Positions 5,108 to 54,340 of a stretch of DNA of 64,000 bases are shown piece after piece. The first letter of the stretch is position 1; every line of letters begins with the position of its first letter. The stretch is from Deltaproteobacteria bacterium (GTDB taxonomy: Bacteria > Desulfobacterota > WTBG01 > CAIYCZ01 > CAIRTM01). The position numbers and the translations under genes were made by a program. The stretch spans positions 47,390 to 111,389 of the forward strand of contig JAJRXD010000013.1 of assembly GCA_024276465.1 (NCBI GenBank), in the 5' to 3' direction. The notes beneath the pieces were generated by a model. It did no database searches, was not told where the DNA came from, and was given only the letters and a program-made list of their open reading frames with translations.

Positions 5108-5842
5108 ATGAAAAATAACACTCTTAAAATCATTCCGACGGTTCTTTCATATCTTCTGATTTTAAATGTTTGTCCTGTGTCATCTGATTCGGGAAAAGAT
5201 CCTTTTTTCAAATCACGCCACGATATGGTGGAAAATGATTTGAAAGCTCGCGATATAAATGACCCCGCTGTTTTAAAGGCCATGGAAAAGGTGAAAAGGC
5301 ACATTTTTGTTGATAAAAGCATGCAGGGATCAGCATATGGGGACTATCCTATGCCCATAGGGCAGAGACAGACGATTTCCCAACCCTATATTGTAGCCCT
5401 TATGACACAAAGCCTCCGGTTAACAAAGAAAGACAATGTGCTGGAAATCGGAACCGGTTCAGGATATCAGGCAGCGGTTCTTGCTGAAATTGTCAATCAT
5501 GTATATTCCATAGAGATCAAGCCTGAACTTGCCCATAAAGCAAAAAAACTTCTTAAGTCTCTTGGATACAAAAATATAACTGTAAAGGCCGGGGACGGGT
5601 TTTACGGATGGAAAGAACATGCACCTTTTGATGCTATTATACTTACCTGTTCTGTAGAAGAGATTCCATTGCCTCTTGCAGGACAGCTGAAAGACGGGGG
5701 GAAAATAATTATGCCTCTTGGAGAAAAATTCTGGATACAGAGCCTTGTCATAGGGACTAAAAAGGGTGAAGATATTGAAATTAAAAATCTGATTCCTGTG
5801 AGGTTTGTTCCCATGACAGGGAAAGCTGAACAAAAAAAGTAG
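5108..5842 (+). CDS. pcm: protein-L-isoaspartate O-methyltransferase with N-terminal signal peptide
   Basis: 244 aa. SAM-binding motif VLEIGTGSGYQAAVLAEI and PCMT family similarity. Hydrophobic N-terminus. Confidence 0.85.
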   Translation: MKNNTLKIIPTVLSYLLILNVCPVSSDSGKDPFFKSRHDMVENDLKARDINDPAVLKAMEKVKRHIFVDKSMQGSAYGDYPMPIGQRQTISQPYIVALMTQSLRLTKKDNVLEIGTGSGYQAAVLAEIVNHVYSIEIKPELAHKAKKLLKSLGYKNITVKAGDGFYGWKEHAPFDAIILTCSVEEIPLPLAGQLKDGGKIIMPLGEKFWIQSLVIGTKKGEDIEIKNLIPVRFVPMTGKAEQKK

Positions 5843-5866
5843 AGACGCAAAATTTTGCGTCTCTAC
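5839..5866. terminator. bidirectional rho-independent terminator (28-bp perfect palindrome)
   Basis: gtagagacgcaaaattttgcgtctctac lies between the convergent pcm (+) and PBP (-) genes and is preceded by an A-run. Confidence 0.7.
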
Positions 5867-5896: not shown

Positions 5897-7909
5897 TTAA
5901 TTGACCTGATCCTGTTTGTTTTGATAGGACTGCAGGTATGATGTGGGCAAAGTGCCTTCTTTAAAACATTCAAATATTATCTTATCGTCTTTTGTAGCAG
6001 GGAAATAACCTGTGTCAGGGTTTATTCTGACAAAAACAATGCCTTCAGGCACATTGAATGTCTGAACAGGCTTATTTGTCAAAACCTTCTGCATAAAATC
6101 AAGCCAGATCGGGCCTGCAGCCACGGCCCCTGTTTCATGCTTGCCCAGTGATTTGAGATCATCAAATCCCACCCATACCCCTGCAACAAGCTGTGGTGTG
6201 AATCCTATAAACCATGCATCCCGAACCTCATTAGTTGTCCCTGTTTTTCCCGCACATGGCCGGCTGAGTGCCCTGACCCTTCTGCCTGTTCCTTCCTCAA
6301 CCACACTTTGCAGTAAGGTCGTCATAATGTAGGCAGTTTGAGGGCTGACAGCAGAACTCAGGCTGGGACGGTTTTCTTTGATAATATTTCCATCTCTGTC
6401 AATGATCCTGGTTATGAAAATTGGTTCTGCATAAACTCCCTGAGCGCAAAACGTTGAAAAAGCCTTAACCATATTCAGAAGTGATACACCGCAGGTTCCC
6501 AGGGCAAGTGACAGATCGTGGTTGAACTCTCCGGTCACGCCAAGCTGTCCGGCGTATCTGACAACATAATCCACACCGATGTTCCGGAGGATTTTTATGG
6601 TTACAATATTCCGGGATTGTGTCAGAGCCTTTCTTAATGTGATTGGACCTGTAAAAGCCTTGTCATAGTTATGCGGTTCCCAGAACTTATTGTTTTCTCC
6701 ATCGCTGACATCGAAAACAATCGGGGCATCAATAATTATGCTTGAAGGAGTATATCCTTTATCCAGGGCAGCTGCATAAATGATAGGCTTGAAAGCAGAG
6801 CCTGGCTGCCGTCTTGCCTGAATAGCCCTGTTGAACTGACTTTCCTTGAAATTTCTGCCGCCAACCATTGCTTTTACATAACCGGAATATGGATCCATGG
6901 ATATCAGTGCTGCCTGTACACGGGAATTGTTGTCTGAAACACCTTCCCTCTTTTCATATGCTTTAACTCCGGCTGCAACAGCGCCCTGAGCTGTGATCTG
7001 CATGGATAAATCCAGAGTTGTTTCTATGCGCAGCCCTTCTTTATATAAATAATCAGCCCCGTATTCCCTCTCTATTGTTCTGCGAATGTGTTCAGCAAAA
7101 TAAGGGGCCATGGATCTGTTTATGTTTTTAGATTCAGCAAAAGTCAGGGGTTCTTTTTCAGCTTCCCTCTTTTCAGCAGAGGTTAAATAACCCTGTTGAA
7201 CCATTCTTGCCAGAACATAGTTCTGGCGCTGCTTTGCTCTTTGCAGATTGCGAAAAGGAGAGTAATAGTTGGGGGCTTTAGGCAATCCTGCCAGCAAAGA
7301 AGCCTCAGCAGTTGAGAGCTCAGATGAGGATTTTCCAAAATAAACACGGGAAGCAGCTTCGATACCATATGCTCCATGGCCAAAATAGATCTGGTTAAGG
7401 TACAAGGCCAGAATATCATCCTTTGATAAATATTTTTCAATCCTTGTGGCAAGAATTGCTTCTTTAATCTTTCTGGAAAAACTCCTTTCAGGTGTTAAAA
7501 GCAAAGATTTAACTATCTGCTGAGTTATAGTGCTCCCACCCTGTTTGATTTCAAATGATCTTATGTTTTTTAAGGCAGCCCGAAAAATGCTCCAGAGGTT
7601 TATGCCTTTGTGTTTAAAAAACCTGTCATCTTCTGCTGCAATAATTGCTTCAATAAGCACTGTGGAAACATCTGAAAGCGGTACAATATATCTCCTCTCA
7701 AGATAAAATTCACCTATGAGCTTCCCCCTGCTGGAATATACCTCAGTAACAACGGATGGCCGGTAATCTTTCAGGGATTCTATGCGGGGCAGACTGTAAC
7801 TGAAGTAAAAATAGAGGGCTAAAACGCAGAATATTGGCAGAAAAACAATTAAGGTTAAAACTGTTGCAGAGAAAAAATTTTTTTTATTATTTTTCTTTTT
7901 TACAGCCAT
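5897..7909 (-). CDS. mrcA: penicillin-binding protein 1A family (bifunctional glycosyltransferase/transpeptidase)
   Basis: 670 aa. N-terminal TM, GT51 motifs (EDDRFFKHKGIN, RGGSTITQQ) and transpeptidase motifs (SAFKP, KTGTT). Confidence 0.9.
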   Translation of the reverse strand: MAVKKKNNKKNFFSATVLTLIVFLPIFCVLALYFYFSYSLPRIESLKDYRPSVVTEVYSSRGKLIGEFYLERRYIVPLSDVSTVLIEAIIAAEDDRFFKHKGINLWSIFRAALKNIRSFEIKQGGSTITQQIVKSLLLTPERSFSRKIKEAILATRIEKYLSKDDILALYLNQIYFGHGAYGIEAASRVYFGKSSSELSTAEASLLAGLPKAPNYYSPFRNLQRAKQRQNYVLARMVQQGYLTSAEKREAEKEPLTFAESKNINRSMAPYFAEHIRRTIEREYGADYLYKEGLRIETTLDLSMQITAQGAVAAGVKAYEKREGVSDNNSRVQAALISMDPYSGYVKAMVGGRNFKESQFNRAIQARRQPGSAFKPIIYAAALDKGYTPSSIIIDAPIVFDVSDGENNKFWEPHNYDKAFTGPITLRKALTQSRNIVTIKILRNIGVDYVVRYAGQLGVTGEFNHDLSLALGTCGVSLLNMVKAFSTFCAQGVYAEPIFITRIIDRDGNIIKENRPSLSSAVSPQTAYIMTTLLQSVVEEGTGRRVRALSRPCAGKTGTTNEVRDAWFIGFTPQLVAGVWVGFDDLKSLGKHETGAVAAGPIWLDFMQKVLTNKPVQTFNVPEGIVFVRINPDTGYFPATKDDKIIFECFKEGTLPTSYLQSYQNKQDQVN

Positions 7910-7921
7910 AGTGGATTATGC

Positions 7922-8314
7922 TTAAAAAAAAACAGCCAGTTCAAAGGCATTTTCAATTAAATTAACGTTGTACCCCTTGCCTGAAAACTGTATCGCTACA
8001 ATGTCAAACCTGGCAGCCCTGTCTTCCAATTTATATCGCTGAATAAATTCCAATGCAACCCAGCTGATTTTTTTTTGCTTTTTGGACTGGACAGCTTCCT
8101 GTGGCAAACCATATGCTTCTGAACTTCTTGTTTTTACTTCGATAAAGGCAAGAGTTTTTTTGTGTTGCGCAATTATATCGATTTCACCAAACTTGCACCT
8201 GTAGTTTCTGAACAATATTTTATACCGGTTTTTTTTGAGAAAGTTAACTGCAATCTCTTCTCCCCTCTCCCCCAGGCTTTTGCTTTTTTCAGTCATAAAA
8301 AAGTGGAGCTGCAC
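7922..8314 (-). CDS. yraN: YraN family (UPF0102) putative endonuclease
   Basis: 130 aa. GEEIAVNFLKKNRYKILFRNYRCKFGEIDIIA matches the YraN family. Confidence 0.8.
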   Translation of the reverse strand: MQLHFFMTEKSKSLGERGEEIAVNFLKKNRYKILFRNYRCKFGEIDIIAQHKKTLAFIEVKTRSSEAYGLPQEAVQSKKQKKISWVALEFIQRYKLEDRAARFDIVAIQFSGKGYNVNLIENAFELAVFF

Positions 8315-8440: not shown

Positions 8441-9058
8441 TCAAAGCGCTTGTTTAAAACTTTTTCTATGAATTGGGCAGTGTCCGTAAACTGTCAATGC
8501 CCGCACATGTTCAGGGGTTCCGTATCCCTTATGCTTTGCAAAGTTGTACTGGGGATAAATGGTATGGTATTTTTTCATGATTGAATCCCTTACCACTTTT
8601 GCCATTATGGACGCAGCTGCAATTGCAAGGCTCATTGTGTCGCCTTTTTTAATAGGTGTCTGTGGTATTTTGGTAGGAATAGCGTGAGGGCCGTCAACAA
8701 TTATGTAATCAGGCTTAACACACAGGGTCTCGACAGCCTTTTTCATGGCCATGAGACTGGCCTGAAGAATGTTTATGCGATCAATTTCATCAGGCTCAAC
8801 AAGTGCCCAGCTCCAGGCCATGGCATTTTCTTTTATTACAGGATAAAGAGTGACCCTTTTATTTTCAGTCAGTTTTTTTGAATCGTTTATTTCCAGATTG
8901 CACCAGTGCCGTGGCAGGATAACTGCTGCTGCTACCACGGGCCCTGCCAGGGGACCTCTTCCCGCTTCATCAACTCCTGCAACATGTGTATATCCATCAT
9001 TTCGAAGCAGTTCTTCAGGCTGATTTTCTTTAAGTGGCAGCGAGAATAAGCTTTCCAT
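8441..9058 (-). CDS. rnhB: ribonuclease HII
   Basis: 205 aa. GVDEAGRGPLAGPVV active-site motif. Confidence 0.95.
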   Translation of the reverse strand: MESLFSLPLKENQPEELLRNDGYTHVAGVDEAGRGPLAGPVVAAAVILPRHWCNLEINDSKKLTENKRVTLYPVIKENAMAWSWALVEPDEIDRINILQASLMAMKKAVETLCVKPDYIIVDGPHAIPTKIPQTPIKKGDTMSLAIAAASIMAKVVRDSIMKKYHTIYPQYNFAKHKGYGTPEHVRALTVYGHCPIHRKSFKQAL

Positions 9059-9419: not shown

Positions 9420-10164
9420 TGTTAAGCTCCAATCTTTCGGTTTTTTTTATTTTATTAATAATTTCACACTCTTCTTTATCGAGAGCAGCCTTTTTTAAAA
9501 GATCCGGCCTTCGCCGGAGAGTTTTTTTTATTGCCTCTGCCTTTCTCCATTGTTTAACTTTTTTGTGGTCCCCTGAGATGAGGACATCAGGAACCGCAAA
9601 TTTACGAAACTTTGATGGCCGTGTATATTGAGGATATTTCAGCAGGCTGTTTGAAAAGGTATCTTCAAGAACACAGGCCCTGTCACCCACAACTCCGGGA
9701 ACAAGGCGTGCTATTGAATCAACAATCAGCAAAGCAGGTATTTCGCCGCCGGTAAGGACATAATCACCTACAGATATCTCCTCGTCCACAAAACAAAGCA
9801 CCCGTTCATCCACACCCTCATACCTCCCGCAAATAATTAAAACCTGATCGTAAATACTCAAACTTTGTGCTGTTTCCTGATCAAAGACAGTACCCTGAGG
9901 TGTGGTAAGTATAGTACGGGTTTTTTTTGAGGCTGCTTTTACAGCCTCAACAGCTTTTACAATTGGTTCAACTTTCATAACCATCCCGGCCCCGCCACCA
10001 TAGGGGCTGTCGTCTGCGGTCCTATGTTTGTCCTGCGTGTAATCCCGCAGATTATGAACTTTTATATTAATTAACCCCTTTTGTTGCGCCTTTTTGATTA
10101 TGCTCTCTTGTAAAGGTGATTCAAAAATTCGGGGAAAAAGGGTGATTATGTCAAATTGAACCAT
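9406..10164 (-). CDS. trmD: tRNA (guanine37-N1)-methyltransferase
   Basis: 252 aa. [19 protein letters not shown]-terminus and SPOUT fold motifs. Confidence 0.95.
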
Positions 10165-10757: not shown

Positions 10758-10972
10758 TTTTTAGGTTTCTCCTGAAGTCAGTTTTTTTAAAAAACAGATG
10801 CTTTTTCCAGCAATTACGAGTTTACCCTCTTTTTACAAACAGCAAATATTTTAGTCTATATTAAATAACAGTACTTTGTCAAGAGGAATTATGCTAAAAA
10901 TACCTTGAAAACCACAAAACCGTGTGCTAACTTTTTTAATCATCGTTCTATTTATATAGAAAAAAACATTGG

Positions 10973-42619: not shown

Positions 42620-42650
42620 ACAAAAAAGGAAATTCTTTTTTGCTTCTCAG
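42620..42650. terminator. imperfect hairpin between convergent phoR and the DUF45 gene
   Basis: gaagacaaaaaaggaaattcttttttgcttc is an inverted repeat. Confidence 0.35.
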
Positions 42651-43399
42651 ATTATGACTTTTTCCAGGCGTTGCTTACGCTTTTCCCAGTCCGGCAGAAT
42701 TCGTCCGAGAAGCTGGTAAAATTTCCTGTCATGTTGCGGACAGATCAGATGACACAGTTCATGTATAATCACATAATCAATACAGTGGATAGGTGCCTTG
42801 ACAAGTTCTGTGTTCAACATGATGTTGCCATTGCCAGAACAGCTGCCCCATCGTTTTTTTATACGGCGATAGCGCACTTGCGGTTCTGTTACGCCCATCC
42901 TCACAAAGGCTTGCAGGTAATAAGCAAGTCTTCTTGTAAGCAAATCCCTGGCATGTTCCGAATACCAATCAAGCATAAGTGCTTTGGCTTTTTCCCTTTT
43001 GTTTGGATCTGGTAACTGCATTTCAAAAAAACGACCGAGCAATCGTACTCGTGGTGTATCGCCACGTCGTGTTCTCAAACGATACTGCCGCCCCAAATAA
43101 TAATGAGTTTCACCGGAGACAAATTTTCGTTCCATAGGAAAGGACTGAAACTGCTCAAAAAAATCAAGTTGCCGGGCTATCCATGATGCCCGCTTTACAA
43201 GTCGCTGCTGAACAACTTCCAGCTCATATCCTGCAGGTGTTTTTGCCACGATTTTAAGGTCTGGGTACACTGTAATGGAAAGACGTTTGCGCTCGCTCCA
43301 CATAACATCCACAGCGAACTGTCGTCGTCCAAAACTTATTTTTATTTTTTCGCTTTTCACGCCAGTCACGGTTTCCTGATCCTGGCAATATCCAGACAC
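42647..43399 (-). CDS. DUF45/YgjP-like (WLM/M48-like) zinc metallohydrolase
   Basis: 250 aa. HELCHL HExxH motif. The family commonly trails hsdR in Type I RM loci. Confidence 0.75.
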   Translation of the reverse strand: MSGYCQDQETVTGVKSEKIKISFGRRQFAVDVMWSERKRLSITVYPDLKIVAKTPAGYELEVVQQRLVKRASWIARQLDFFEQFQSFPMERKFVSGETHYYLGRQYRLRTRRGDTPRVRLLGRFFEMQLPDPNKREKAKALMLDWYSEHARDLLTRRLAYYLQAFVRMGVTEPQVRYRRIKKRWGSCSGNGNIMLNTELVKAPIHCIDYVIIHELCHLICPQHDRKFYQLLGRILPDWEKRKQRLEKVII

Positions 43400-46300
43400 T
43401 GTTCCATTATCGCATCCATCTCCTCAAACGTAATTTCAATACCTTCTCTGTCTTTAAAGTCAAAAAGAAGGTCTTCGATATCATTCCTCATACGATTTTG
43501 TGTGTCCATATCACTATCCCAGCTAACAATACGGTTTCGTTCAATGACTTCATCTATAGCCAGCGCAACATCGGCAAGAACATCTTCGAAATCATCCCGG
43601 CCGTTATCCAATCGCCCGATGATTTCCTTAAGAGAACCAAAATAGGCCTTGGCAACATCATGGCTCTTGAGTTTTTCCGGAATTCGGTCTCCAGTACGGT
43701 TACGCACTGCGTTCATAATCTCCGTAACTTTCCTGAGATACTCATTTGCCTTAATCCGTTCTTCCCTGAAAGCCGCGATAGCAGCAATCAGGAGCTCTGA
43801 GAACCGTTTATAGAAAGCCGGGTCTTCCTGCATGCGCTCATGGATTGTTCGGGCTGTACGATGGGCAATTGTGTCGGCTTTGGCGGCCGCGTTCGGCAGT
43901 TTTTCCACTTCCCGGGCAAAGGCATCGGCATCAAAGATGTTAACCAGAGAGGTGATTTTTTCCACCTCACCGGTGCCGACATGCGTATCCAGCAGTTTTT
44001 GAATCTTAGGTTCGTATTCGCTAAAATCCACGACTTCTGCATATCGTTTCCTCACCGCCGTGCGCAGCTTGGAGAAAAACTTCAGGTCCGCCCGATAACG
44101 ACTCAACTTTTCCGGATCGGTTTCCTCTAAAAACTTTACGCTGGACAGTGCAATACCAAGCGTTTTTGAAAATGCCGATAAACGTTCATAAAACCTGGTC
44201 CGCAGCCCCACATCCGCCAGCGCCAGCTCGTAGGCTTCCTCATCCTGCTTGTTCTTGACCTCTTTAAATGTATCCCACAGGAGAGAATGCTTCTGAGGAA
44301 GTGTTGATGTCTCCACACTCACATCGGTGAGAATATTCTCAATATCTCCGGAATCAAACTCTGATAACGTGCTGTAAAGGTCCAGGGCGTGGTCGAGGTT
44401 TTCCAGGACCCCGCGATAATCGATGATATATCCGAAATCTTTGCTATTGCTCAGCCGGTTGACCCTGGCGATGGCTTGCAGCAGGGTATGGTCCTTCAGT
44501 TTCCGCATCAGGTAAAGAATGGTATTTCGGGGCGCGTCGAATCCAACGAGCAACTTATCTACCACAATAATTATTTCGGGATGTTCCGCGTTTTTGAAGG
44601 CATTGATAATCTGTTTGTTGTACTCCCGTTCGCTGCCGTATTTGCTGATGATCGTTTTCCAGAACCGATGCACGGCCAGTTTGTTTTCTTCATACAGGTC
44701 CTCTTCACCTTCCCGTTCGTCGGGACCCGAGATCAGCACTTCGCATGACACCATGGCGAATTCATCCAGATATTTTTTGTAGAGTAACGCGGCAGCCTTG
44801 TCCTGCGTCACCATTTGCCCCTTAAACCCTGTTCCTTGCCAGTTGTCACGAAAGTGCTCGCTGATATCCCAGGCAATGGCCATAACCTTCTGCGCCGCCT
44901 TGTTCAATTGGTCAGTGGTTGCGAATTTTTTTTTCAGGTCTGCAGATTGTTCATCGCTCAAGTTGGTTGTGATTCGCTCGAACCAGGCGTCGATACCATT
45001 GGAGTCTACGTGCTGTTCAACGTGTCTGCCCTCATATAAAAGGGGAACAACCGCCTTATCAGCCACCGCCCGGTCGATGGTATAGGTATCAATCAGGCCG
45101 CCGAATTTTTCGACCGTGTTTTTGTCCTTCTTCATCACCGGCGTCCCGGTGAAACCGATGTAACAGGCGTTCGGTAATACCCGACGCATTTTGGCATGGC
45201 GCGGGCCGTACTGGCCGCGATGGCCTTCATCTATCAGAACAAAAATATCGGGATCATCGTTGCGCACAACGTGCCGACCGACAGCCGCCTCAAATTTGTC
45301 GATGATCGTTGTTACAATGCGCTGTTTATTGCCTTTCAGCATCTGCGACAGGTGCTTGCCGGTTCCGGCCTGCTCAACTTCCTTGCCGCAATGGTGGAAG
45401 GTTCTGTATATCTGGTCATCAAGATCAACCCGGTCGGTCACCAGGACGATTTTGTAGTCGGTAATTTCAGGGCACAGGGCGATGGACTTGGCAAGCAGTA
45501 CCATGGTCAAGGACTTGCCGCTGCCCTGGGTGTGCCAGACCACGCCGCCCCGCCGTCTGCCGTTTTGTTCGCGATTCCCGATGCGGTCCATAATTTTTCT
45601 GACGGCAAAGTATTGCTGATACCGTGCGATCTTCTTGACACCGGCATCAAACAGAATAAAGCGATAGGTCAATTCAAGGAGCCGTTCAGGACGGCACAAT
45701 GCATAAAGTGCTCGATCCTGCTCAGTCACCTGTCTTTTAAGAGTGCCGTAAGCGGTCGGTTTTTCCCGTACCATCCACTCATTGTCAGTGAACAGCCTGT
45801 CCACCTGATTTTCAGTCAGGGGAATGTTTACCAATTCTTTCAAGGGCGGATGACCATCCGCCCCTACAGTTTCGATATTGTCTTCCCGCCATGCAGACCA
45901 GAATTTCAAAGGCGTTCCCGTAGTTGCGTATTTGGCCTCATTCTTTGACAACACCAAAAGGAGCTGAGAATAGATAAACAGATGAGGAATTTCGTCATGT
46001 TTCTGGTTGCGGATCTGCTGGGATATGGCCTGCGCAAGCGACTCCTTGATGTGCGGCGATTTACATTCGATCACGCAAAAGGGAATACCATTTACAAAGA
46101 GTACTATATCCGGTCTGCGGGTCTGGTGACTGCCGGCCCGCTCAACGGTAAATTCTTCCGTGACATGAAAGATGTTGTTGTCCGGATGTTCCCAGTCGAT
46201 ATAATGCAGGGTAAAACTCTTGATATCGCCGTCCACTGACTGCTGCAGGCTTTTGCCCAGGCACAACAGGTCATAAATTTTCTCATTGGTACGCACCAGT

Positions 46301-46563
46301 CCGTCAAAGGGAATCTCTTTGAGTGCCTGCAGGGCGCTCAGGATATTGCCCTCGGTAAACGGCAGCTCTCTTCCCTTGAATCTGACCCGGTTATTTTTCC
46401 GCAGCCAGTCAGCAAGAATTCCCTCCAGGAGTACGCCCCCCAGCCTGCCGCTCCGAAGGTCAAGAGCCTCTTTTGGTGTCAGATATTGCCATCCCAGATT
46501 CTGAAGCAGGTGCAGGGCAGGGAGCTGAGAAATGGCGTCTTCGTTTAAAACTGGCGCCCTCAT
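43366..46563 (-). CDS. hsdR: Type I restriction enzyme R subunit
   Basis: 1065 aa. HsdR N-terminal nuclease region and DEAD/DEAH helicase motifs (GSGKS, DEGHRGQ). Confidence 0.95.
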   Translation of the reverse strand: MRAPVLNEDAISQLPALHLLQNLGWQYLTPKEALDLRSGRLGGVLLEGILADWLRKNNRVRFKGRELPFTEGNILSALQALKEIPFDGLVRTNEKIYDLLCLGKSLQQSVDGDIKSFTLHYIDWEHPDNNIFHVTEEFTVERAGSHQTRRPDIVLFVNGIPFCVIECKSPHIKESLAQAISQQIRNQKHDEIPHLFIYSQLLLVLSKNEAKYATTGTPLKFWSAWREDNIETVGADGHPPLKELVNIPLTENQVDRLFTDNEWMVREKPTAYGTLKRQVTEQDRALYALCRPERLLELTYRFILFDAGVKKIARYQQYFAVRKIMDRIGNREQNGRRRGGVVWHTQGSGKSLTMVLLAKSIALCPEITDYKIVLVTDRVDLDDQIYRTFHHCGKEVEQAGTGKHLSQMLKGNKQRIVTTIIDKFEAAVGRHVVRNDDPDIFVLIDEGHRGQYGPRHAKMRRVLPNACYIGFTGTPVMKKDKNTVEKFGGLIDTYTIDRAVADKAVVPLLYEGRHVEQHVDSNGIDAWFERITTNLSDEQSADLKKKFATTDQLNKAAQKVMAIAWDISEHFRDNWQGTGFKGQMVTQDKAAALLYKKYLDEFAMVSCEVLISGPDEREGEEDLYEENKLAVHRFWKTIISKYGSEREYNKQIINAFKNAEHPEIIIVVDKLLVGFDAPRNTILYLMRKLKDHTLLQAIARVNRLSNSKDFGYIIDYRGVLENLDHALDLYSTLSEFDSGDIENILTDVSVETSTLPQKHSLLWDTFKEVKNKQDEEAYELALADVGLRTRFYERLSAFSKTLGIALSSVKFLEETDPEKLSRYRADLKFFSKLRTAVRKRYAEVVDFSEYEPKIQKLLDTHVGTGEVEKITSLVNIFDADAFAREVEKLPNAAAKADTIAHRTARTIHERMQEDPAFYKRFSELLIAAIAAFREERIKANEYLRKVTEIMNAVRNRTGDRIPEKLKSHDVAKAYFGSLKEIIGRLDNGRDDFEDVLADVALAIDEVIERNRIVSWDSDMDTQNRMRNDIEDLLFDFKDREGIEITFEEMDAIMEQCLDIARIRKP

Positions 46564-48095
46564 CGGTTTTTCTCCTGTTCAAGTAGTTGCTGTCCCTTTA
46601 TCGTCAGCCGATATTTCTGCTTGCTGCTTGTTGGCTTGTCAGGAATGGTCATTTCAATAAACGCAGCCTCGATAAGATGATTCAATACTTGCTGCCTGAA
46701 CTTGGTGCGATCTTTTCGTCCTGTAATGGACATAAGCTCAAGCAATGTACTTTCCCCCTTGCATTTATTGAGTATTTCAACTTGGTGCCGACTTAGTGCC
46801 GACTTAGTGCCAACTTGTGTATCCTGCAGCCATTTCAGAGATTCAGCAAAAACAGGATGGATAAATAATTCTACCAGAAAATAAGTCCTTTCGTCATCCG
46901 TATGGAATATAGGCGCAGGAGAACCATTGTCCCTAATCGCCCTTAACATTTTTGGAATGCCGGTTCCTCGCCCCTCGGTCATTTCAAGCTCCTTGAGGAA
47001 CTCCCCGACCCGGCGGTTACGGTATCGACGGGACAGAAAACGGAATTCTTGCATGTCTTTTTTCCGGATGGATCGGTCAGGCCCAGGAAAGCTGGAAATG
47101 GTTATACGATCCGGCAAAATGCGCACCTCCATAGGCTCCCTGATTTCATAAGAACGGTGATACACAGCGTTACAGAGGGCTTCTTCAATGGCGGCAAACG
47201 GATAGTTGAAAAAACGGTCGGCTTCTGCACGGTCAGGGTGCTTGATGATCTTTTCCTCTATCACCGTCGAGCGGATATGAGCAAGTGCATCCTGCAACAT
47301 AACGTGGAGCGGCCCAGTGAAAATCTTTTCAGTGAAAAAGTCCGCCCCGGGACCTTCAGGAAAATGCACTACATCAATCTGTGTTTGAGGGAAAAATTTG
47401 GAGGGATTGTTGTTAAAGAACATGAGGCCGACATTCCTGGGCCACACTGCTTCGTCAGGCCCGTCAGCAATGTTTATCCGGCGGCAAAGCTGGACAAAAT
47501 TCATTTTTGCCGCTTCGGGAAAAAGATCGCTTTTGACCTGCTTCAGATAGGCACGCATCAGTCCCAGATCCAAATCGTCAAAAATGGCAGCCTGGTTCAT
47601 GCGGTCGTCAAAGGGAACAGTGGCAGCAAGGCTCATTAATTCCACTTCATCCTGATGCCTGGCTCGAACAGTAACTGACCCCTTACGAATATAGTAGGCA
47701 AATTCCCTCTTGCCCTTTGCCAGAGAAACCGGGGCTTTGTAGGGCCTGGTCTGACCTCCTATGGCCCAGAGCACCAGGATGTGTTTTTCGCCAATTTTAC
47801 ATGGAGCTATAATCGGGTGATAATAAGGCACCATCCGGTAGCCAAACTCCACGATTTCTTTCTGGATGGCGTCAAGTTCCCCGGCTGGCATCCCTTGTGG
47901 CGGCAAAACAGGCCGGCCATTATCTTCTTCCACTCCGATGATGATGTATCCACCGCCAAGGTTATGAAAATCATTGGCAAAAGCACACATGGTGTGCAGC
48001 ACCTTTTCCGGGTTCCAGCCGGCCTTGAACTCCAGCCGTTCCCATTCCACGGTCCGGGCGGTGAGAAGGTCGTTTATGTTAATTGGGAGGTTCAT
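46560..48095 (-). CDS. AlbA_2 (Schlafen-like DNA-binding) and HATPase_c_4 domain ATP-binding protein
   Basis: N-terminal AlbA_2-type domain (EFKAGWNPEKVLHTMCAFANDFHNLGGGYIIIGV). Probable start MNLPININ at 48095; the ORF track starts at a GTG at 48131. Confidence 0.65.
   Translation of the reverse strand: MNLPININDLLTARTVEWERLEFKAGWNPEKVLHTMCAFANDFHNLGGGYIIIGVEEDNGRPVLPPQGMPAGELDAIQKEIVEFGYRMVPYYHPIIAPCKIGEKHILVLWAIGGQTRPYKAPVSLAKGKREFAYYIRKGSVTVRARHQDEVELMSLAATVPFDDRMNQAAIFDDLDLGLMRAYLKQVKSDLFPEAAKMNFVQLCRRINIADGPDEAVWPRNVGLMFFNNNPSKFFPQTQIDVVHFPEGPGADFFTEKIFTGPLHVMLQDALAHIRSTVIEEKIIKHPDRAEADRFFNYPFAAIEEALCNAVYHRSYEIREPMEVRILPDRITISSFPGPDRSIRKKDMQEFRFLSRRYRNRRVGEFLKELEMTEGRGTGIPKMLRAIRDNGSPAPIFHTDDERTYFLVELFIHPVFAESLKWLQDTQVGTKSALSRHQVEILNKCKGESTLLELMSITGRKDRTKFRQQVLNHLIEAAFIEMTIPDKPTSSKQKYRLTIKGQQLLEQEKNR
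46785..46817. repeat. 11-bp tandem repeat, 3 copies, inside the AlbA_2 gene
   Basis: gtgccgactta gtgccgactta gtgccaacttg. Confidence 0.6.
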
Positions 48096-48105
48096 ATTTT
48101 CACCT

Positions 48106-48897
48106 TTAATTTCCGGTTTCAGGGCAGACACGCAGGTCTGCCCCTACAACGGCAGGGTTTTCCCGGTCGTGTTCCCATTTGGCCGGATTATCAATGATGT
48201 ATTGGCGAAGGCGGTTTAATTCGTTTTCATTGCGGACAATATGTTCCCAATAATTGCGTTGCCATAATTTGCCGTCAAATCGTGGCCAACCGCATTGTTT
48301 GACACCACGGATATATTCATTGGTTGTTATGGTTTTAAACCATTGAACCACCGCCCGTAGGGGCGCACCTGTGTGTGCGCCCGTTGTTTCGTGTGCGTCC
48401 GGTTCGGGTTCGCCTGGTTCCATGTGTTCGTCCGTTTTGTGGTTGTCCGAATCGTGGTTGTCCCCTATGTGTTCCCGCGGTTTTGTAGGGGCAATCCTGC
48501 GTGATTGCCCATTGTTCCGTGATCGCACATCACTAGGGCAGACACGCAGGTCTGTTTCAGGGCAGACACGCAGGTCTGCCCCTACATTGACAACAACACC
48601 GTGAAAATGATTCGGCATAACAATATATTCATCACATCGAATATCCGGGAATTTGTTTTCTAATTCCTGATACCATTTCTTCACCATCCGTCCCGGATCA
48701 TTCAATACCATTTCACCATCCACAATTTTACCAAACATACATTCCCGATTCTGTGTGCATATTGTCACAAAATATGCCCCTGATTGCGAATAATCATATC
48801 CCCGCAAACGGATAGACCGACGGTTTCGTTCCCGCCGTAGGGGCAACCCCCTGTGGTTGCCCACATCCAATTCTGTATCCGAATCCCGTTTAATCAT
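48106..48897 (-). CDS. REP-associated tyrosine transposase (RAYT, IS200/IS605 TnpA-like HUH enzyme) with REP palindromes inside the ORF
   Basis: HUH motif MPNHFHGVV and Tyr motif LWQRNYWEHIVRNE...YIIDNPAKW. The spacing between the two motifs is about 57 aa longer than canonical because of a REP-containing in-frame insert. Confidence 0.8.
   Translation of the reverse strand: MIKRDSDTELDVGNHRGLPLRRERNRRSIRLRGYDYSQSGAYFVTICTQNRECMFGKIVDGEMVLNDPGRMVKKWYQELENKFPDIRCDEYIVMPNHFHGVVVNVGADLRVCPETDLRVCPSDVRSRNNGQSRRIAPTKPREHIGDNHDSDNHKTDEHMEPGEPEPDAHETTGAHTGAPLRAVVQWFKTITTNEYIRGVKQCGWPRFDGKLWQRNYWEHIVRNENELNRLRQYIIDNPAKWEHDRENPAVVGADLRVCPETGN
48122..48147 (-). repeat. REP element (GTAG-headed palindrome) overlapping the RAYT stop
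   Basis: Minus strand reads gtaggggcagacctgcgtgtctgccc. Confidence 0.75.
48357..48382 (+). repeat. REP element variant inside the RAYT ORF
   Basis: gtaggggcgcacctgtgtgtgcgccc. Confidence 0.7.
48485..48510 (+). repeat. REP element variant inside the RAYT ORF
   Basis: gtaggggcaatcctgcgtgattgccc. Confidence 0.7.
48536..48585 (-). repeat. tandem REP pair: a truncated copy at 48536-48554 and a full copy at 48560-48585
   Basis: gggcagacacgcaggtctg tttca gggcagacacgcaggtctgcccctac. Confidence 0.75.
48837..48862 (+). repeat. REP element variant in the 5' part of the RAYT ORF
   Basis: gtaggggcaaccccctgtggttgccc. Confidence 0.7.
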
Positions 48898-49946
48898 ATT
48901 TCTACCCTGATTTCCCCTGTCAGCAGTTTCTGCATCAGGCCCTTCTTTTGTTCCAATAATTTCTCCTGTTTCTTTTTCAATAATTCAATTTCCCGGTCGC
49001 AGGTGGAAAGAGTCCCTGCTATACGTTTTTGTTCGTCTGTGGTAGGCAAGTGAACCGTGGTCTTCATCACAGCGGATGTTGTTAGACCAAACCGCGTGGC
49101 TCCATTAGCATGTGTCGTGAAATGCTTTCGTGACCGTGCGCTACCCAATTCCTTTGACAGAAAAACGGGGTTGACTTCTACGGAGTTCGGGCGGATGAGT
49201 GCGAGGTGATAACCGCATACAACATTCTCTAATTTCTCTGTGACAACTGCCGGAATGCCTATATCATCGGGTGTCTCTGAATCTTTCGTAATCATGACGT
49301 CACCCTGTCGCAGTAAGAACCTTTCAATCTCGGAAGCCGAAGCCGTTGCTGGCATGAAGTTCAGGTCAACGGTGATATAGTCATTCGCATAGACATCCAT
49401 GTAGTTGCAGAGCCTGACGGGTATTTCATCGGTATGAGTCTTCTTGTCCACGCCGCTGAAGGAAACGTGAGCGATGCTGCCAATGGGCCTCTCTTCCCAC
49501 CCCTCCGGCAGTTCGCCTCTTTTCTCAACCGGTTTGCCAAACTCAGGGAACCGCATCCGGCCGGAGAGCAGTTGCTGCATCAGCCCTTTTTTGAGTAATT
49601 CAGCGAAATCTCGATCTACGAGAGCAGGAACAGCAATGTCATCGGCTGTTTCGGAATCCTTTGTAATGAGGACGTCACCCTTTTGCAGAGAATAGCGTTC
49701 AATCTCTCGTGGCATTGCCGTAGCGGACATGAATGAGATGGCGTCTGAAATATGGGCGTTGTAGTAAACGTCCGTATAATTGCACAGGCGTACTGCCTGC
49801 TCTCCCTTATGTGATTTTTTGTCGACGTTGCTGAAACGTACATCAGCGACATCCTCAAGCCGCACACATTCCCATTCCTCCGGTATCCACCCAACTTTGG
49901 AATCCTTATATCCGAGCCTGTTTTCGTTCCGCTTGCTCATGCGCAT
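48894..49946 (-). CDS. hsdS: Type I restriction-modification specificity subunit with two similar target-recognition domains
   Basis: 350 aa. Duplicated TRD blocks (VRLCNYTDVY...ITKDSETADDIAVPALV and VRLCNYMDVY...ITKDSETPDDIGIPAVV). Conserved coiled-coil spacer regions. Confidence 0.85.
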   Translation of the reverse strand: MRMSKRNENRLGYKDSKVGWIPEEWECVRLEDVADVRFSNVDKKSHKGEQAVRLCNYTDVYYNAHISDAISFMSATAMPREIERYSLQKGDVLITKDSETADDIAVPALVDRDFAELLKKGLMQQLLSGRMRFPEFGKPVEKRGELPEGWEERPIGSIAHVSFSGVDKKTHTDEIPVRLCNYMDVYANDYITVDLNFMPATASASEIERFLLRQGDVMITKDSETPDDIGIPAVVTEKLENVVCGYHLALIRPNSVEVNPVFLSKELGSARSRKHFTTHANGATRFGLTTSAVMKTTVHLPTTDEQKRIAGTLSTCDREIELLKKKQEKLLEQKKGLMQKLLTGEIRVEI

Positions 49947-50698
49947 TTCTCCCGCTTGGCCTGTTCGCGTGCCATCTCATCGAGTTCTTTCTTCAGAGCT
50001 TTTGGGAGAAGGCTCCAGTCAAAATCTTTCATCTCGCTCTCTTTCAGGCTGTAAAGAACATTGGTGGCATCCCTGATGAATCGTTCTTTGGACTGCTGTT
50101 TCAATAAATCAAGCATGGATGCTCCGTGACATCTCCGCAGTATCTTCCCGGAACCGCAGGGACAAACGTGATGCCCCCGATATGTCCCATCGGCCATCAG
50201 TTTTAATAATGACAGCACGATCTGAACATCATCGGTGTTAAACAGGTCTTGATAGTATTCCCGGATACCATTTGCCCCATGAGAGAGTTCACCGAAAGGC
50301 ATTTCGCCATGTTTCTCAAAGTATGCATATCCATACAGGTACTCGACAACCAGCGTTTCCACAAAGGTGACAAGGCGGGGATCGGCCTTGAATCGCCTCC
50401 ATACTTCAACCGGGGCTCCAAGGCACAGAGTCCGATCACCATACTGATGGAAATTTGGTGGGATTCGACCGCCGGTCTCCTGAACCGTGGGTGGAGAATC
50501 CGGGTAGTCACGGGGCAGCATGATCAGAATAGAGAATACGTCCGTGATTGTCACTTTTTGAAACGTCGCAGAGAACGACAGCATCCCCCGAATCACCCAC
50601 CGGCAGGGGGCGTCTTCGTATAGTTTCAGCCCGGAGGAATATTTCCCTGACAATTCCTCGAACTGCTGCCGGATCAGTGCTTCTTTGCCGTTATTCAA
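49937..50698 (-). CDS. E2/UBC-like protein with C-terminal SEC-C-like zinc motif (CBASS Cap2-like, E2-only)
   Basis: HPN-like loop and catalytic Cys (IPPNFHQYGDRTLCLGAP). C-terminal HVCPCGSGKILRRCHG. 4-nt overlap with the nucleotidyltransferase gene. Confidence 0.55.
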   Translation of the reverse strand: MNNGKEALIRQQFEELSGKYSSGLKLYEDAPCRWVIRGMLSFSATFQKVTITDVFSILIMLPRDYPDSPPTVQETGGRIPPNFHQYGDRTLCLGAPVEVWRRFKADPRLVTFVETLVVEYLYGYAYFEKHGEMPFGELSHGANGIREYYQDLFNTDDVQIVLSLLKLMADGTYRGHHVCPCGSGKILRRCHGASMLDLLKQQSKERFIRDATNVLYSLKESEMKDFDWSLLPKALKKELDEMAREQAKREKCA

Positions 50699-51858
50699 GA
50701 TTCACGCCCCCACGGCTTGCTGGGCTTGGTAATACTGATACTTGGGGCTACGGCTGCAACGGCACTTACAGAGCTTGAACGAGTTGGAAAGGCCCTTGAA
50801 TCTGCCTCATTGACAATGCGGTCGCCAAACCGAGGTTTGAGGTTCTCGATCATGTCATCGAGGTCCCCAGCGCGAAGGGCGGCATCCAGATCGACACGAA
50901 CCTGTTGTATCCACTCGCGGAACTTGACTTCCAACTCTGGGTGTTTCCTCCATTTGTCGGCAAAGTTCTCGGGATGATCGGTCACATCAACCGGGTTTGC
51001 AACGAGGGCGTTACCCTGTTCATCCCGTCCAATCAGACCGGGCATCTTGTTGACGATATTCTGCAGCGCATCAAGAAGATCGGCTTCGTTGTTGTATGCA
51101 TGACCGGCAAGTGTCGTAATGATGATTGAAATAGGCCGATTACCCAAGTCGTCTTTAAACATGATGTCCCTGTGCCGCTTGAGAATCTGGATGGATCGTT
51201 GCAGCGGGGTTTTGACCTTGTATTCCGGGACATCCTCAATGCTTGCTCGAAGCGATTCGGCCAGCAACATGCGTTTGGCATCAAACTGCACGCGCGTGCG
51301 CTCCTTGAACCACTCGGCATAGCCGACGGGATTACTCCGTTGCCAATTGTATAGTTCCCGGTCGGTTATAAGAATTGCGCTTTGGGCAAGGTTCGCACCG
51401 ATCTCACGGGCTATTCCGTTGATATCGTCATCGGGAATTGCCGGCAGAATGTCCATGTGGAAACGGGCTGAGTCGGCATATTGCAGTGTCCAGCAGCGTT
51501 TGCCCTCTTTGAGCATCTTGCGATACCGTTCATTTTCCTTCAGGCGGTCCCCGACCATATCCTTAAGTTGCTTCTGGGTGACGTTTTCTTTTCTTAGAGC
51601 CTTCAATTCACAAACGAGGTCGATGTCATATTCGTCCTTATCGTTTACAGGTTTGATCATCGTGCCCAGACGAAATGAACCTTGTGGATAGATTTGGGGA
51701 TCATACTCAGCTATGGGCGAATCATCCTTATTCAGCCAGTCACCAACCGCCTCGTAATGCTTTACAGCCGCTTCGTACTGTGCATCGGAGATATCCAGTG
51801 ATTCCGCCAATTCCTGAAACAACTGCCTGAGTTCATTATGTCGTTCCTGTGTCATCAC
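50695..51858 (-). CDS. cGAS/DncV-like nucleotidyltransferase (CD-NTase)
   Basis: 387 aa. Pol-beta NTase signature QGSFRLGTMIKPVNDKDEYDIDLV (GS...DxD) and a downstream acidic residue (FHMDILP). Flanked by a patatin effector and an E2-like gene. Confidence 0.7.
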   Translation of the reverse strand: MMTQERHNELRQLFQELAESLDISDAQYEAAVKHYEAVGDWLNKDDSPIAEYDPQIYPQGSFRLGTMIKPVNDKDEYDIDLVCELKALRKENVTQKQLKDMVGDRLKENERYRKMLKEGKRCWTLQYADSARFHMDILPAIPDDDINGIAREIGANLAQSAILITDRELYNWQRSNPVGYAEWFKERTRVQFDAKRMLLAESLRASIEDVPEYKVKTPLQRSIQILKRHRDIMFKDDLGNRPISIIITTLAGHAYNNEADLLDALQNIVNKMPGLIGRDEQGNALVANPVDVTDHPENFADKWRKHPELEVKFREWIQQVRVDLDAALRAGDLDDMIENLKPRFGDRIVNEADSRAFPTRSSSVSAVAAVAPSISITKPSKPWGRES

Positions 51859-52823
51859 ATACCTCCGTTGTTGAGGTCCAAAAAAGTCTTGATCATTTCC
51901 GCCTTATGCGAGAAATCCCTATCAGCACGAGACTTCAAATCGCGCAGGTCAGCCGGATCGTCCAAAGGAAGCGCAGAGTCTGAGTCAAAATTGAGTCTTA
52001 AAATCTGCTCTGGTCTCAGGAGAAGACCTGTCATGTTGTTGGCTGTTTCAGATTGAAGATTTAGCAGCATTGAAATGAACTTTCCATGCTGCCAGCGTGT
52101 TGCAAATCCCCAGCCCTGATATCGCTTCCACCATGGCCGCTTCTGTGGATAAAAGCTACGGCTAACTCCTGTGCCGAGGGTAAACACCTTAAGGGAGTCA
52201 AGGTCCTTGCCAAGCCGCTTTTTGGCGTCAATTACTGCAACAAGTGAAGGACTGTTTGCCCACAACCCCCCATCGGCCAGAAGGTACTCACCTACATTTT
52301 GAGGATCGAAATAGGTGGGGGCTGAGCAGGATGCCATAACGGCATCTCGGATAAGAACGTTGCGGTCACGGACAAACCCTTTATCATAGCCCGACTTGAA
52401 CACATGAACACATCCGTTCCCGATGTCAGTTGCCGGAATAATGAGTGGCGTTGTTACTTGCCCAAGTCGGCGGTCAGCAAAAACCTCCTGCAGAATGTCA
52501 CGAAGGTATTGGTTTCTGTATCGACTCCTAATAAAACCAAAGCGTGGCATAAACCGGCGAGGAAATATCTGAGCACCGTGTTCTTCGTAGAATTCCACGA
52601 TGTCACACGCGCGCATTTCGCACGCAAGTCCTGCCGCAACTATTGAACCGGTACTCGTACCTGCAATCAATTGAAAATGATTTCGCAAATCCAAGTCGTA
52701 TTCTTGCTCAATCCGGGCAAGAATATGGGCGGCATAGACGCCACGAAATCCACCACCGTCAACGGAAAGAATACGGAAGGAGTTGTCTGCAGAACTTGAC
52801 AGAACAGGGTTCGATTTGCTCAT
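51855..52823 (-). CDS. capV: patatin-like phospholipase (CapV-like CBASS effector)
   Basis: 322 aa. Oxyanion hole DGGGFRG, nucleophile elbow GTSTG, catalytic dyad Asp in ADGG. Confidence 0.85.
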   Translation of the reverse strand: MSKSNPVLSSSADNSFRILSVDGGGFRGVYAAHILARIEQEYDLDLRNHFQLIAGTSTGSIVAAGLACEMRACDIVEFYEEHGAQIFPRRFMPRFGFIRSRYRNQYLRDILQEVFADRRLGQVTTPLIIPATDIGNGCVHVFKSGYDKGFVRDRNVLIRDAVMASCSAPTYFDPQNVGEYLLADGGLWANSPSLVAVIDAKKRLGKDLDSLKVFTLGTGVSRSFYPQKRPWWKRYQGWGFATRWQHGKFISMLLNLQSETANNMTGLLLRPEQILRLNFDSDSALPLDDPADLRDLKSRADRDFSHKAEMIKTFLDLNNGGM

Positions 52824-54340
52824 AGACCCAGTTCCTTTAAATAACCGCCGAGTTTTTTCTGAGTACTTGCAAGCTCCGTCTCGATCTCTTCAATTTCCTT
52901 TTGAACGGCAGAAATGTCGATGTCCTCTTCTTCCTCAAAGGTATCCACATAGCGGGGGATATTCAGATTGAATTCGGCTTCCTGAATCTCTTCCAGCGTT
53001 GCCAGGTGGGAGTATTTTTCTACTTCCTCGAATTTGCGGAACGTAGAGATGATCTTTTCGATATCTTCATCCCGCAGGCGGTTCTGCTTTTTCTCGTCTT
53101 TAAACTCGCGGCTGGCGTCTATAAAAAGAACATGCTTATCACGTTTGTTCTTTGCCGTTTTCCAGGGTTTCCTGCCCTTGTTGAAAACAAGAATGGCCGC
53201 CGGTATCCCGGTGCCGTAGAAAAGCTGGGCGGGTAGACCAATAACCGCTTCAAGGATATTGTCCTCAATGAACGCCTTCCGGATAACGCCTTCCGCTCCA
53301 CCACGAAACAGAACCCCGTGAGGCACAATGACGCCCACCTTGCCTTCACCCTCCAGGGTAATTTCAACCATGTGGCTGATAAAAGCGTAATCGCCCCGGC
53401 TTTTTGGCGGGACCCCGCGCCAGAAGCGGTTGAACCGGTCGTGACTTGCATTTTCCTGGCCCCACTTATCCAGAGAAAACGGCGGATTGGCAACCACGAC
53501 ATTGAAGCGCATCAGTTCGTCGTTCTCTATCAGCCTGGGGTTGTTGATGGTGTCGCACCATTCAATGCGGGCAGAATCCATTGAATGCAAAAACATGTTC
53601 ATTCGGCACAGGGACCAGGTGGAACCGTTGGACTCCTGGCCGGACAGGGCAAAATTCGGACTCCCGACTTCCTGACCGACTTTGATGAGAAGCGATCCTG
53701 ACCCGCAGGCCGGGTCACAGATACGGTCTCCGTCTTTGGGATTAAGCAATTTGGCAAGCAGCGTGGAAACTTCGGCTGGAGTGTAGAACTCGCCGGCTTT
53801 TTTCCCGGCCCCGGCCGCAAAACGGGAAATCAGGTATTCATACACGTCACCGATTACGTCACGATTCCCAATGCGTGAGGGGCGCAAATCAAGACGCTCA
53901 TCGGCAAAGTCCTCCAGAAGATTCTTCAGGCGGCGGTTGCGCTCCTTGGTCTGACCCAAGGCAGGTTCGCTGTTGAAATCAATATTGCGAAAAACATTTT
54001 CGAGTTTCGACTTGTTGGCATCCTCGATTTTTTCAAGGGCAATATTGATGATCTCACCGATATTGGGCTCGTCGCGTCTGCTGTAGAGGGAATTAAAGTT
54101 TGATTCCGGAGGCACCACAAAGCGTTCCCGGGCCAGTGCTCTTTCCACTCGGGCAGCATCACCATTATATTTTTTCTCGTATTCGGCTCTTTTGTCCTTC
54201 CACAGGTCGCTCATGTACTTGATGAAGAGCATGGTAAGGATGTAATTCTTGTATTCCGACGGATCGACTGCGCCCCTGAAGGTGTCGCAGGCCCGCCAGA
54301 CAACATCATTGATTTCTTTTTGGGAAACGTGAGGACTCAT
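52820..54340 (-). CDS. hsdM: Type I restriction-modification N6-adenine DNA methyltransferase subunit
   Basis: 506 aa. HsdM N-terminal domain. SAM-binding motif DPACGSGS. Catalytic NPPF (VVANPPFS). Confidence 0.95.
   Translation of the reverse strand: MSPHVSQKEINDVVWRACDTFRGAVDPSEYKNYILTMLFIKYMSDLWKDKRAEYEKKYNGDAARVERALARERFVVPPESNFNSLYSRRDEPNIGEIINIALEKIEDANKSKLENVFRNIDFNSEPALGQTKERNRRLKNLLEDFADERLDLRPSRIGNRDVIGDVYEYLISRFAAGAGKKAGEFYTPAEVSTLLAKLLNPKDGDRICDPACGSGSLLIKVGQEVGSPNFALSGQESNGSTWSLCRMNMFLHSMDSARIEWCDTINNPRLIENDELMRFNVVVANPPFSLDKWGQENASHDRFNRFWRGVPPKSRGDYAFISHMVEITLEGEGKVGVIVPHGVLFRGGAEGVIRKAFIEDNILEAVIGLPAQLFYGTGIPAAILVFNKGRKPWKTAKNKRDKHVLFIDASREFKDEKKQNRLRDEDIEKIISTFRKFEEVEKYSHLATLEEIQEAEFNLNIPRYVDTFEEEEDIDISAVQKEIEEIETELASTQKKLGGYLKELGL

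Follow-up and report, generated by a model that had tools for sequence, protein, structure and literature searches.

Introduction

The closest described relatives of the gene reported here are the tyrosine transposases associated with repetitive extragenic palindromes (REPs), or RAYTs, of TnpA_REP subclass 2.4, which was defined by Quentin, Siguier, Chandler and Fichant (BMC Genomics 2018, 19:475, PMC6006769) and equals RAYT group 4 of Bertels et al. 2017. In the former article, members of this subclass have a Y1 HUH core in which the distance between the HuH motif and the tyrosine is enlarged and variable (published median 88 aa vs 58–67 in most subclasses), a variable insert between strand beta3 and helix alphaC that is made of short DNA repeats and was modelled as a peripheral extension, REPs in frame within the gene itself, and no C-terminal extension domain; their canonical long REPs lie within 1 kb of the gene and have a GT[AG]G foot and a stem whose bottom is formed by three G-C pairs. 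We analyzed a 64,000-nt stretch of a Deltaproteobacteria bacterium contig (JAJRXD010000013.1, positions 47,390 to 111,389; hereafter the window), which carries a RAYT open reading frame (ORF) inside a Type I restriction-modification (RM) operon, and this gene has every testable feature that the article gives for the subclass. We think it very likely, judging from the sequence, that the locus is a REPtron of subclass 2.4, i.e., an intact gene for a single-stranded DNA (ssDNA) HUH/Y1 nuclease-transferase together with its cognate REP hairpins, which lie in frame in that gene. It differs from the published description in three respects: its HuH-Y spacing of 134 aa is above the published median of 88 and within the range measured here, the REPs near it are all in the ORF and none are in its flanks, and it is internal to a Type I RM operon with a nested cyclic-oligonucleotide-based anti-phage signaling system (CBASS), a context that PMC6006769 does not bring up.

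Three other systems are useful for comparison. With E. coli TnpA_REP (subclass 2.2; structure 4ER8) the window protein shares the HuH motif, the catalytic Tyr, a W-Q...E-H..R block and the fold, and the REPs of both, including those in E. coli bacterial interspersed mosaic elements (BIMEs), have a GTAG foot 5' of a GC-rich hairpin; however, the E. coli enzyme is a 165-aa protein with a 54-aa HuH-Y spacing and a C-terminal extension, and the REPs of E. coli have a bulge, lie outside genes and number in the hundreds. The TnpA proteins of IS200/IS605 elements (IS608, ISDra2) have the same fold and recognize a hairpin beside a guide tetranucleotide on ssDNA, as the window enzyme would, but an identity as such an insertion sequence was rejected: the NCBIfam IS200 model does not match the RAYT protein, neither IS ends nor a tnpB gene are present nearby, and there is one copy in the window. 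Finally, REPs have been described in frame within genes of unrelated function (Di Nocera et al. 2013), and these and the Rickettsia palindromic elements (RPEs) resemble the present case in being palindromic repeats that add tolerated peptide in frame; a hairpin in the window's hsdR gene (Table 1) fits that description. The RAYT gene is different, in that the host gene appears to encode the very enzyme that recognizes the repeats and in that the insertion sites are conserved clade-wide.

Results and Discussion

The RAYT gene and the protein it encodes

The first-pass annotation of the window called a 263-aa RAYT ORF with an HUH motif, and the Y1 HUH models, the fold and the residues all agree with that call. 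The best family models for the protein, Pfam Y1_Tnp and NCBIfam NF047646 REP_Tyr_transpos, both score under their cut-offs because the REP insert (below) splits the domain match; with the insert removed in silico, Y1_Tnp gives 25.9 bits, over its 23-bit cut-off. The sole match among PDB sequences is E. coli TnpA_REP (4ER8), at a marginal E of 0.1, and Y1 HUH transposases, 4ER8 among them, make up all of the top 30 Foldseek hits. In the 4ER8 alignment H97 and H99 (PNHFH, encoded at 48601–48615) correspond to H59 and H61, and the equivalents of the five E. coli residues that read the GTAG guide, W94, Q95, E100, H101 and R104 (PMC6006769), fall in the stretch WQRNYWEH...YIIDNP (48184–48264) and are invariant or nearly so in an alignment of 26 homologues. 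The E. coli catalytic tyrosine, Y115 (PMC3479197), aligns with Y233 in YIIDNP and not with Y216, which had been proposed initially. The H99-Y233 distance is 134 residues vs 54 in E. coli (H61-Y115), an excess of about 80 aa in place of the 57 aa first estimated.

An AlphaFold (AF2) model built with 26 homologues has predicted local distance difference test (pLDDT) values of 80–92 in the core and below 50 for residues 1–32 and most of 109–176. These low-pLDDT parts coincide exactly with the REP-built parts of the protein and are predicted to be disordered. The protein ends 30 residues past Y233 in a variable, REP-encoded tail, with no C-terminal extension domain. Translational coupling had been claimed for both sides of the gene. 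On the hsdS side it stands, since the hsdS stop and the RAYT start overlap as ATGA (48894–48897); on the other side the AlbA_2/HATPase_c_4/Fic-like_C gene more likely starts at an ATG (48093–48095) that is preceded by an AGGTGA Shine-Dalgarno sequence and lies 10 nt past the RAYT TAA.

Might this ORF be a decaying relic, a REP-riddled RAYT that no longer functions? The model scores under the cut-offs and the long HuH-Y spacing could be read in that way, as could the relatives that have a remnant RM context (locus L281) or partial copies (L290). We nevertheless consider it highly improbable. The frame is open over 792 nt and six repeats, as had been noted, and its start codon overlaps the hsdS stop codon; HuH, Y233 and the GTAG-reading residues are intact and invariant; the core is predicted to fold confidently; and the spacing is inside the family range, which among 125 family representatives runs from 66 to 197 (median 108), with 26 of them (21%) at or above the value of the window gene. 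The gene is a clean, well-preserved example of its subclass. It also shows how Pfam and NCBIfam come to under-call genes of this kind, the domain being broken up by the REP insert.

Table 1. Positions of the RAYT gene, its catalytic and guide-reading residues, and the repeats in and near it.
Feature	Position in window	Strand	Remarks
tnpA_REP / RAYT gene	48106..48897	minus	263 aa, subclass 2.4-like; from ORF list
REP 1, 5' flank absorbed in ORF	48837..48862	plus	GTAGGGGCAACCCCCTGTGGTTGCCC; read antisense in gene, GNHRGLPL
HuH motif H97-F98-H99	48601..48609	minus	end of strand beta3; invariant in homologue alignment
REP 2, sense, A	48560..48585	minus	GTAGGGGCAGACCTGCGTGTCTGCCC; VGADLRVCP directly after HuH strand
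Partial copy	48530..48553	minus	24-nt tandem duplication of the 3' part of REP 2; no GTAG foot, no left arm; TDLRVCPS
REP 3, antisense, B	48485..48510	plus	GTAGGGGCAATCCTGCGTGATTGCCC; frame 1, GQSRRIAPT
REP 4, antisense, B	48357..48382	plus	GTAGGGGCGCACCTGTGTGTGCGCCC; frame 3, GAHTGAPL directly ahead of helix alphaC
W212, Q213, E218, H219, R222	48232..48264	minus	equivalent, in the same order, to the five guide-reading residues of E. coli TnpA_REP (4ER8 alignment)
Catalytic tyrosine Y233	48199..48201	minus	aligns with Y115 of E. coli TnpA_REP
REP 5, 3' flank absorbed in ORF, sense	48122..48147	minus	same 26-mer as REP 2; VGADLRVCP, 4 codons short of stop
Imperfect direct repeat, 17/23	48092..48114 and 48894-48916		gene junctions, ...GGAAAT..GGT.GAAATATGA; weak, p about 0.08
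REP-like hairpin in hsdR	45844..45867	minus	GTAGGGGCGGATGGTCATCCGCCC; 4-nt loop, VGADGHPPL, z -4.8

REP hairpins inside the reading frame

The REP motif, whose formula in the first-pass annotation was one base too long, is GTAGGGGC-N4-CTGYGT-N4-GCCC (26 nt). It has four exact matches in the 64 kb where 0 are expected, all within the RAYT ORF, and a fifth copy there (REP 1) has a CCCTGT loop. All five copies have a GTAG foot, a perfect 8-bp stem with GGGC....GCCC (three G-C pairs) at its bottom, and a 6-nt loop; folded as DNA they form the predicted hairpins, with dG values of -7.9 to -10.5 kcal/mol and z of -2.0 to -3.8. The stem variants agac/gtct, gcac/gtgc, aatc/gatt and aacc/ggtt are exactly complementary in every pair. 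The palindromes are GTAG-footed REPs with the orientations and encoded peptides that were originally assigned to them. A sixth, "truncated" copy (48536–48554) is real, but it arose as part of the neighboring REP was duplicated in tandem over 24 nt, and its origin as an independent REP insertion was rejected; the duplication yields TDLRVCPE/TDLRVCPS and is missing from L276, the locus of the closest orthologue.

We designate copies in the sense orientation (VGADLRVCP) A and those in the antisense orientation B. The order on the coding strand is then B (N-terminal tail), HuH, A, A', B, B, tyrosine helix, A (C-terminal tail), in which REPs 2–4 and the 24-nt duplication fall between residues 104 and 180 with the frame kept. 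The outermost copies are inverted with respect to one another, as first reported, with REP 1 on the plus strand and REP 5 on the minus strand. L276 has the REP 1 element at the corresponding site, and at the REP 5 site it has a different palindrome, GTACGGGCGGTTCGCGAACCGCCC.

A relaxed scan of the whole window found one further element beyond the RAYT ORF, the hairpin in hsdR. The HsdR gene of L276 (protein 91% identical) carries a hairpin at the same site with one stem mismatch; the hsdR hairpin is therefore old, and we rejected the idea that it is a fresh insertion. In one other locus, L282, an hsdS fusion gene contains a REP doublet (6986–7044) and hsdR a single REP (10937–10962). These copies and the hsdR hairpin in the window are the exceptions to the pattern seen in 8–16 kb around ten homologues and the window gene, in which the REPs are nearly all within the RAYT gene. 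A REP of a different, "double-foot" type, GTAGAGACGCAAAATTTTGCGTCTCTAC, is present as a single copy in the window at 5839–5866 (dG -14 kcal/mol, z -9.7), between convergent pcm-like and PBP1A-like genes, where its GTAG foot includes the TAG stop of the pcm-like gene.

The hairpin DNA, and not the peptide, is conserved

Codon usage was compared with 11 homologue genes that were recovered with their DNA. At identical residues, the codon is also identical in a fraction of 0.87 of cases in REP A and 0.95 in REP B, vs 0.55–0.62 in the conserved catalytic core, and the 26-mer GTAGGGGCAGACCTGCGTGTCTGCCC is unchanged at the orthologous site in seven of these 11 loci, although their proteins share only 55–72% identity with the window RAYT. 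When the stem does change, both sides change and the protein is altered: in L283 a GCA to GCG change is paired with TGC to CGC, and Cys becomes Arg. Moreover, the frame in which one and the same element is translated varies among homologues, giving VGADLRVCP or RGRPVCLP in one orientation and GQTHRSAPT or GEHIGSPL in the other.

Public metagenome and viral contigs were searched with a pattern that placed no constraint on the four inner stem positions of either arm. Perfect palindromes made up 240 of the 266 matches (90%; about 1 in 256 would be so by chance), and the 43 distinct sequences contain 53 double-sided changes over three variable pairs. The observed covariation score was reached by none of 500 shuffles, and slid controls collapse. 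The claim that the stems co-vary under a nucleic-acid constraint therefore holds.

Length changes in the ORF respect the frame. Indels relative to the 72%-identical orthologue in L276 are 15, 9, 3, 3, 42 and 51 nt long, all of them multiples of 3 and adjoining REPs; the N- and C-terminal halves are in frame at four of four loci that were found without ORF calling; and two near-identical proteins (P0014 and P0023) differ in the copy number of tandem units.

The contrary reading, that VGADLRVCP and GEHIGSPL are a conserved protein motif selected as peptide, with DNA palindromy that is incidental, draws on the fixed positions of both peptide motifs beside beta3 and alphaC in about 90% of homologues. 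The findings above argue strongly against it, since the synonymous positions are far more conserved than those of the catalytic core, a single DNA element can be found translated in either of two frames and in either orientation, compensatory stem changes alter residues, the segments are predicted to be disordered, and hundreds of contigs carry identical 26-mers without having a gene of this RAYT family near them. We give peptide selection almost no credence. It is the hairpin DNA, not the peptide, that is conserved. The segment between the HuH and tyrosine motifs, which the first-pass annotation allowed might prove to be a conserved domain, is indeed conserved across homologues, but as DNA hairpins and not as a protein domain.

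In-gene REPs are the rule in this family

The first-pass annotation regarded a RAYT gene tiled with its own REPs as unusual, and this proved not to be so. REP peptides are present between HuH and Y in 103 of 104 close homologues, always A and then B, and as noted above about a fifth of the family representatives have a HuH-Y spacing at least as long as that of the window gene; the family itself comprises about 4,500 representative clusters at E <= 1e-30. In-gene REPs are an already published (2018) hallmark of the subclass (PMC6006769). Two points that we did not find in the parts of that article consulted are the conservation of synonymous REP positions above that of the catalytic core and the A...B pair at fixed sites clade-wide. 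Both points argue for internal hairpins that have a function as DNA or RNA, rather than being insertions that are merely tolerated.

The motif in public sequence data

The motif itself is a widespread REP family that in public data lies mostly outside this RAYT gene family. A gene of this RAYT family lies near (within 400 nt) only seven of the 141 matches from metagenome contigs and none of the 125 from viral ones. The matches are rarer in ORFs than random positions are (50% vs 82%, and 62% vs 92%), and neighboring REP pairs in the public contigs are inverted in 19 of 21 cases, as in BIMEs and in REP doublets forming hairpins (REPINs). The motif thus recurs widely in public data, whereas within the 64-kb window the only occurrence elsewhere is the one variant in hsdR. 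RAYT relatives number only two in viral contigs and only four, distant ones in the plasmid collection, too few for statistics on their context.

A scan of genome contigs with a 7-nt-loop variant pattern found 53 related imperfect hairpins, none near a RAYT, and is uninformative on the copy number of the 6-nt-loop motif. The same pattern brought up a related imperfect element, GTAGGGGCAGACCTGYGTGTGGGGCCCC, which within single Acidobacteriota genomes is scattered across many contigs and has no RAYT of this family close to it (loci L010, L015, L017, L021, L032, L036, L042 and L043 in the metagenome-assembled genome MFD06229.bin.2.137, and several in Blastocatellia SMAG_U7443).

A model for the locus

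In this RAYT the inverted flanking REPs and the internal inverted cluster all lie within the reading frame, and we propose that the flanking REP pair and the internal inverted pair are recognized by the encoded enzyme on ssDNA. It is as nucleic acid that the hairpins are conserved. They most likely serve the enzyme itself as GTAG-hairpin recognition sites, and the peptides they encode would be by-products. In the predicted structure the internal cluster corresponds to a surface loop running from strand beta3 to helix alphaC and the outer REPs to the N- and C-terminal tails, places where disordered peptide is probably tolerated; this tolerance by the loop and tails, together with the loss of variants that break the frame, would explain why REPs remain in the ORF. 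The A...B pair is probably ancestral to the clade, and the extra length of the window gene would have arisen through lineage-specific, in-frame events next to the REPs, namely the 24-nt tandem duplication, the gain of one more B-type REP and the lengthening of spacers. Such length variation could have its source in slippage during replication or in events that the enzyme mediates at the hairpins. In this model the enzyme would bind or cut the REP copies, and the full 263-aa protein would be made.

Several points weigh against this REPtron interpretation. There are zero extragenic REP copies within the 64-kb window. The NF047646 model matches the protein with E 1.4e-15 and 57.4 bits, vs a curated cut-off of 80. 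The synonymous-site conservation could also stem from an RNA-level function or from repeated copying, and not from recognition by the enzyme.

Association with restriction-modification operons

The order of genes in the window operon (42647–54340) is hsdM, patatin, CD-NTase, E2-like, hsdS, RAYT, AlbA_2 gene and hsdR, a Type I RM system with CBASS, and this island has about 50% G+C vs about 40% in its flanks; Rfam finds nothing credible in it. The CBASS module (patatin-like effector, CD-NTase/SMODS, E2-like; 49937–52823) is nested between hsdM and hsdS, and it is likewise so in L276/L277. We assembled 15 RAYT contexts, a small sample seeded from one query that comprises 12 context look-ups and three metagenome loci. 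In ten of them the RAYT is inside an RM operon, internal and co-directional and mostly with overlapping stop and start codons. These ten are the window; L276/L277 (the same island); L278; L279; L282; L281, reduced to remnants of hsdM and hsdR; L283 (hsdM then RAYT); L086 (hsdR, hsdS, RAYT); L280 (SNF2 helicase, RAYT, N6/N4 methyltransferase, Fic, Type III Res); and L290 (PLD-SNF2 helicase, MmeI/Eco57I-type methyltransferase, RAYT). The other five (L285, L288, L289, L116 and L124) are not RM contexts.

The RM backgrounds are of at least six unrelated kinds, with at least three Type I families, one Type III-like and one MmeI-like system. Across three Type I families the HsdM proteins are 24–37% and the HsdR proteins 25–27% identical, while the RAYTs are 55–66% identical. 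Related RAYTs thus accompany unrelated RM backgrounds, which means that RM systems have exchanged or acquired the RAYT by its movement between them. The RAYT also evolves faster than HsdM within one island, at 72% vs 95% identity. No mention of an RM-RAYT association was found in the RAYT papers or in a wider literature search, and PADLOC has no model for RAYT. The association is apparently unreported for this RAYT clade, and we offer it as a lead only; if it is general, it would be the first physiological context for a RAYT subclass of this kind.

The operon setting raises the question of whether the REP hairpins work chiefly at the RNA level, as structures that determine how hsdM/hsdS are expressed or decay relative to the downstream genes (including hsdR), the RAYT ORF being their carrier. 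Such a role would be compatible with the locus being a REPtron. The operon-like placement of the RAYT between hsdS and hsdR in the window, L276, L278, L279 and L282 would suit it, REPs stabilize or attenuate mRNA in other bacteria (PMC3733652), and the hairpins, being palindromic, would all fold in the mRNA. However, the coding strand has no T-tracts and no terminator-like sites, and the A...B layout is also present outside RM operons (L285, L288, L289). We regard a mainly RNA-level role as unlikely.

A second possibility is that the RAYT is a working partner of the RM system, for example a nuclease against incoming ssDNA or a recombinase acting on the locus, and not a passenger. The recurrence of the arrangement in ten of 15 contexts and at least six unrelated kinds of RM system, always co-directional and mostly with overlapping codons, points in this direction, as do the REP copies inside hsdR or hsdS in the window and L282. 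On the other hand, the sample is small and starts from one query, five of the 15 relatives are elsewhere, unrelated passenger genes are known to collect at RM loci, and neither the PADLOC models nor the literature that we searched offers support. This partnership seems to us rather unlikely.

Related to this is the idea that the RAYT clade forms an ORF-exact cassette that inserts at RM-operon gene junctions with coupling kept on both sides, and that it serves RM and is not a free-standing REPtron. Its role could possibly be that of a hairpin-specific ssDNA nuclease, of an agent for REP-based control of hsdR expression, or of an agent of locus rearrangement. Repeats at the RAYT ends bear on the idea. 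In L283 the RAYT ORF is flanked by a 45-nt direct repeat (39 of 45 identical; 7960–8004 and 8574–8618) of the hsdM 3' end that includes the ATGA, and L276 has an exact 12-mer at both RAYT ends (about 9004–9015 and about 9793–9804). These look like traces of junction-preserving cassette insertion. A target-site duplication as a general feature was nevertheless not supported: L283 and L276 alone have a significant repeat, that of the window is weak (Table 1), and Y1 transposons are not known to produce target duplications. We hold the cassette idea only tentatively, as a minority possibility beside the REPtron interpretation.

Several further observations were made at these junctions. The AlbA_2 gene region of the window (46560–48131) corresponds to 9790–9840 in L276, which retains only the ribosome-binding site and about the first 40 nt; the AlbA_2 gene was therefore deleted there or is an insertion-prone cassette. 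The AlbA_2/HATPase_c_4/Fic-like_C protein resembles pAgo-associated and SIR2-PNTD families in PADLOC (E about 1e-16). At four loci a conserved RAYT C-terminal motif, (D/E)xxW(M/R/F)x-stop, overlaps the hsdR start by 13 nt (L278 10741–10753 and L279 6296–6308, with the sequence ATGGATGACATGA; L282 8588–8600; L281 8708–8720), and this motif, which ends many homologues, may mark further hsdR-adjacent copies. L290 has a partial second RAYT 5' end (MKYDPSKHH...) past the RAYT stop, at 8673–8790. Finally, a distant RAYT-like "transposase" (30% identity) on the Fulvitalea axinellae plasmid pFA2 (L292, 5917–6519) lies directly upstream of a type I-B cas operon and runs in the same direction, which is another defense-locus context.

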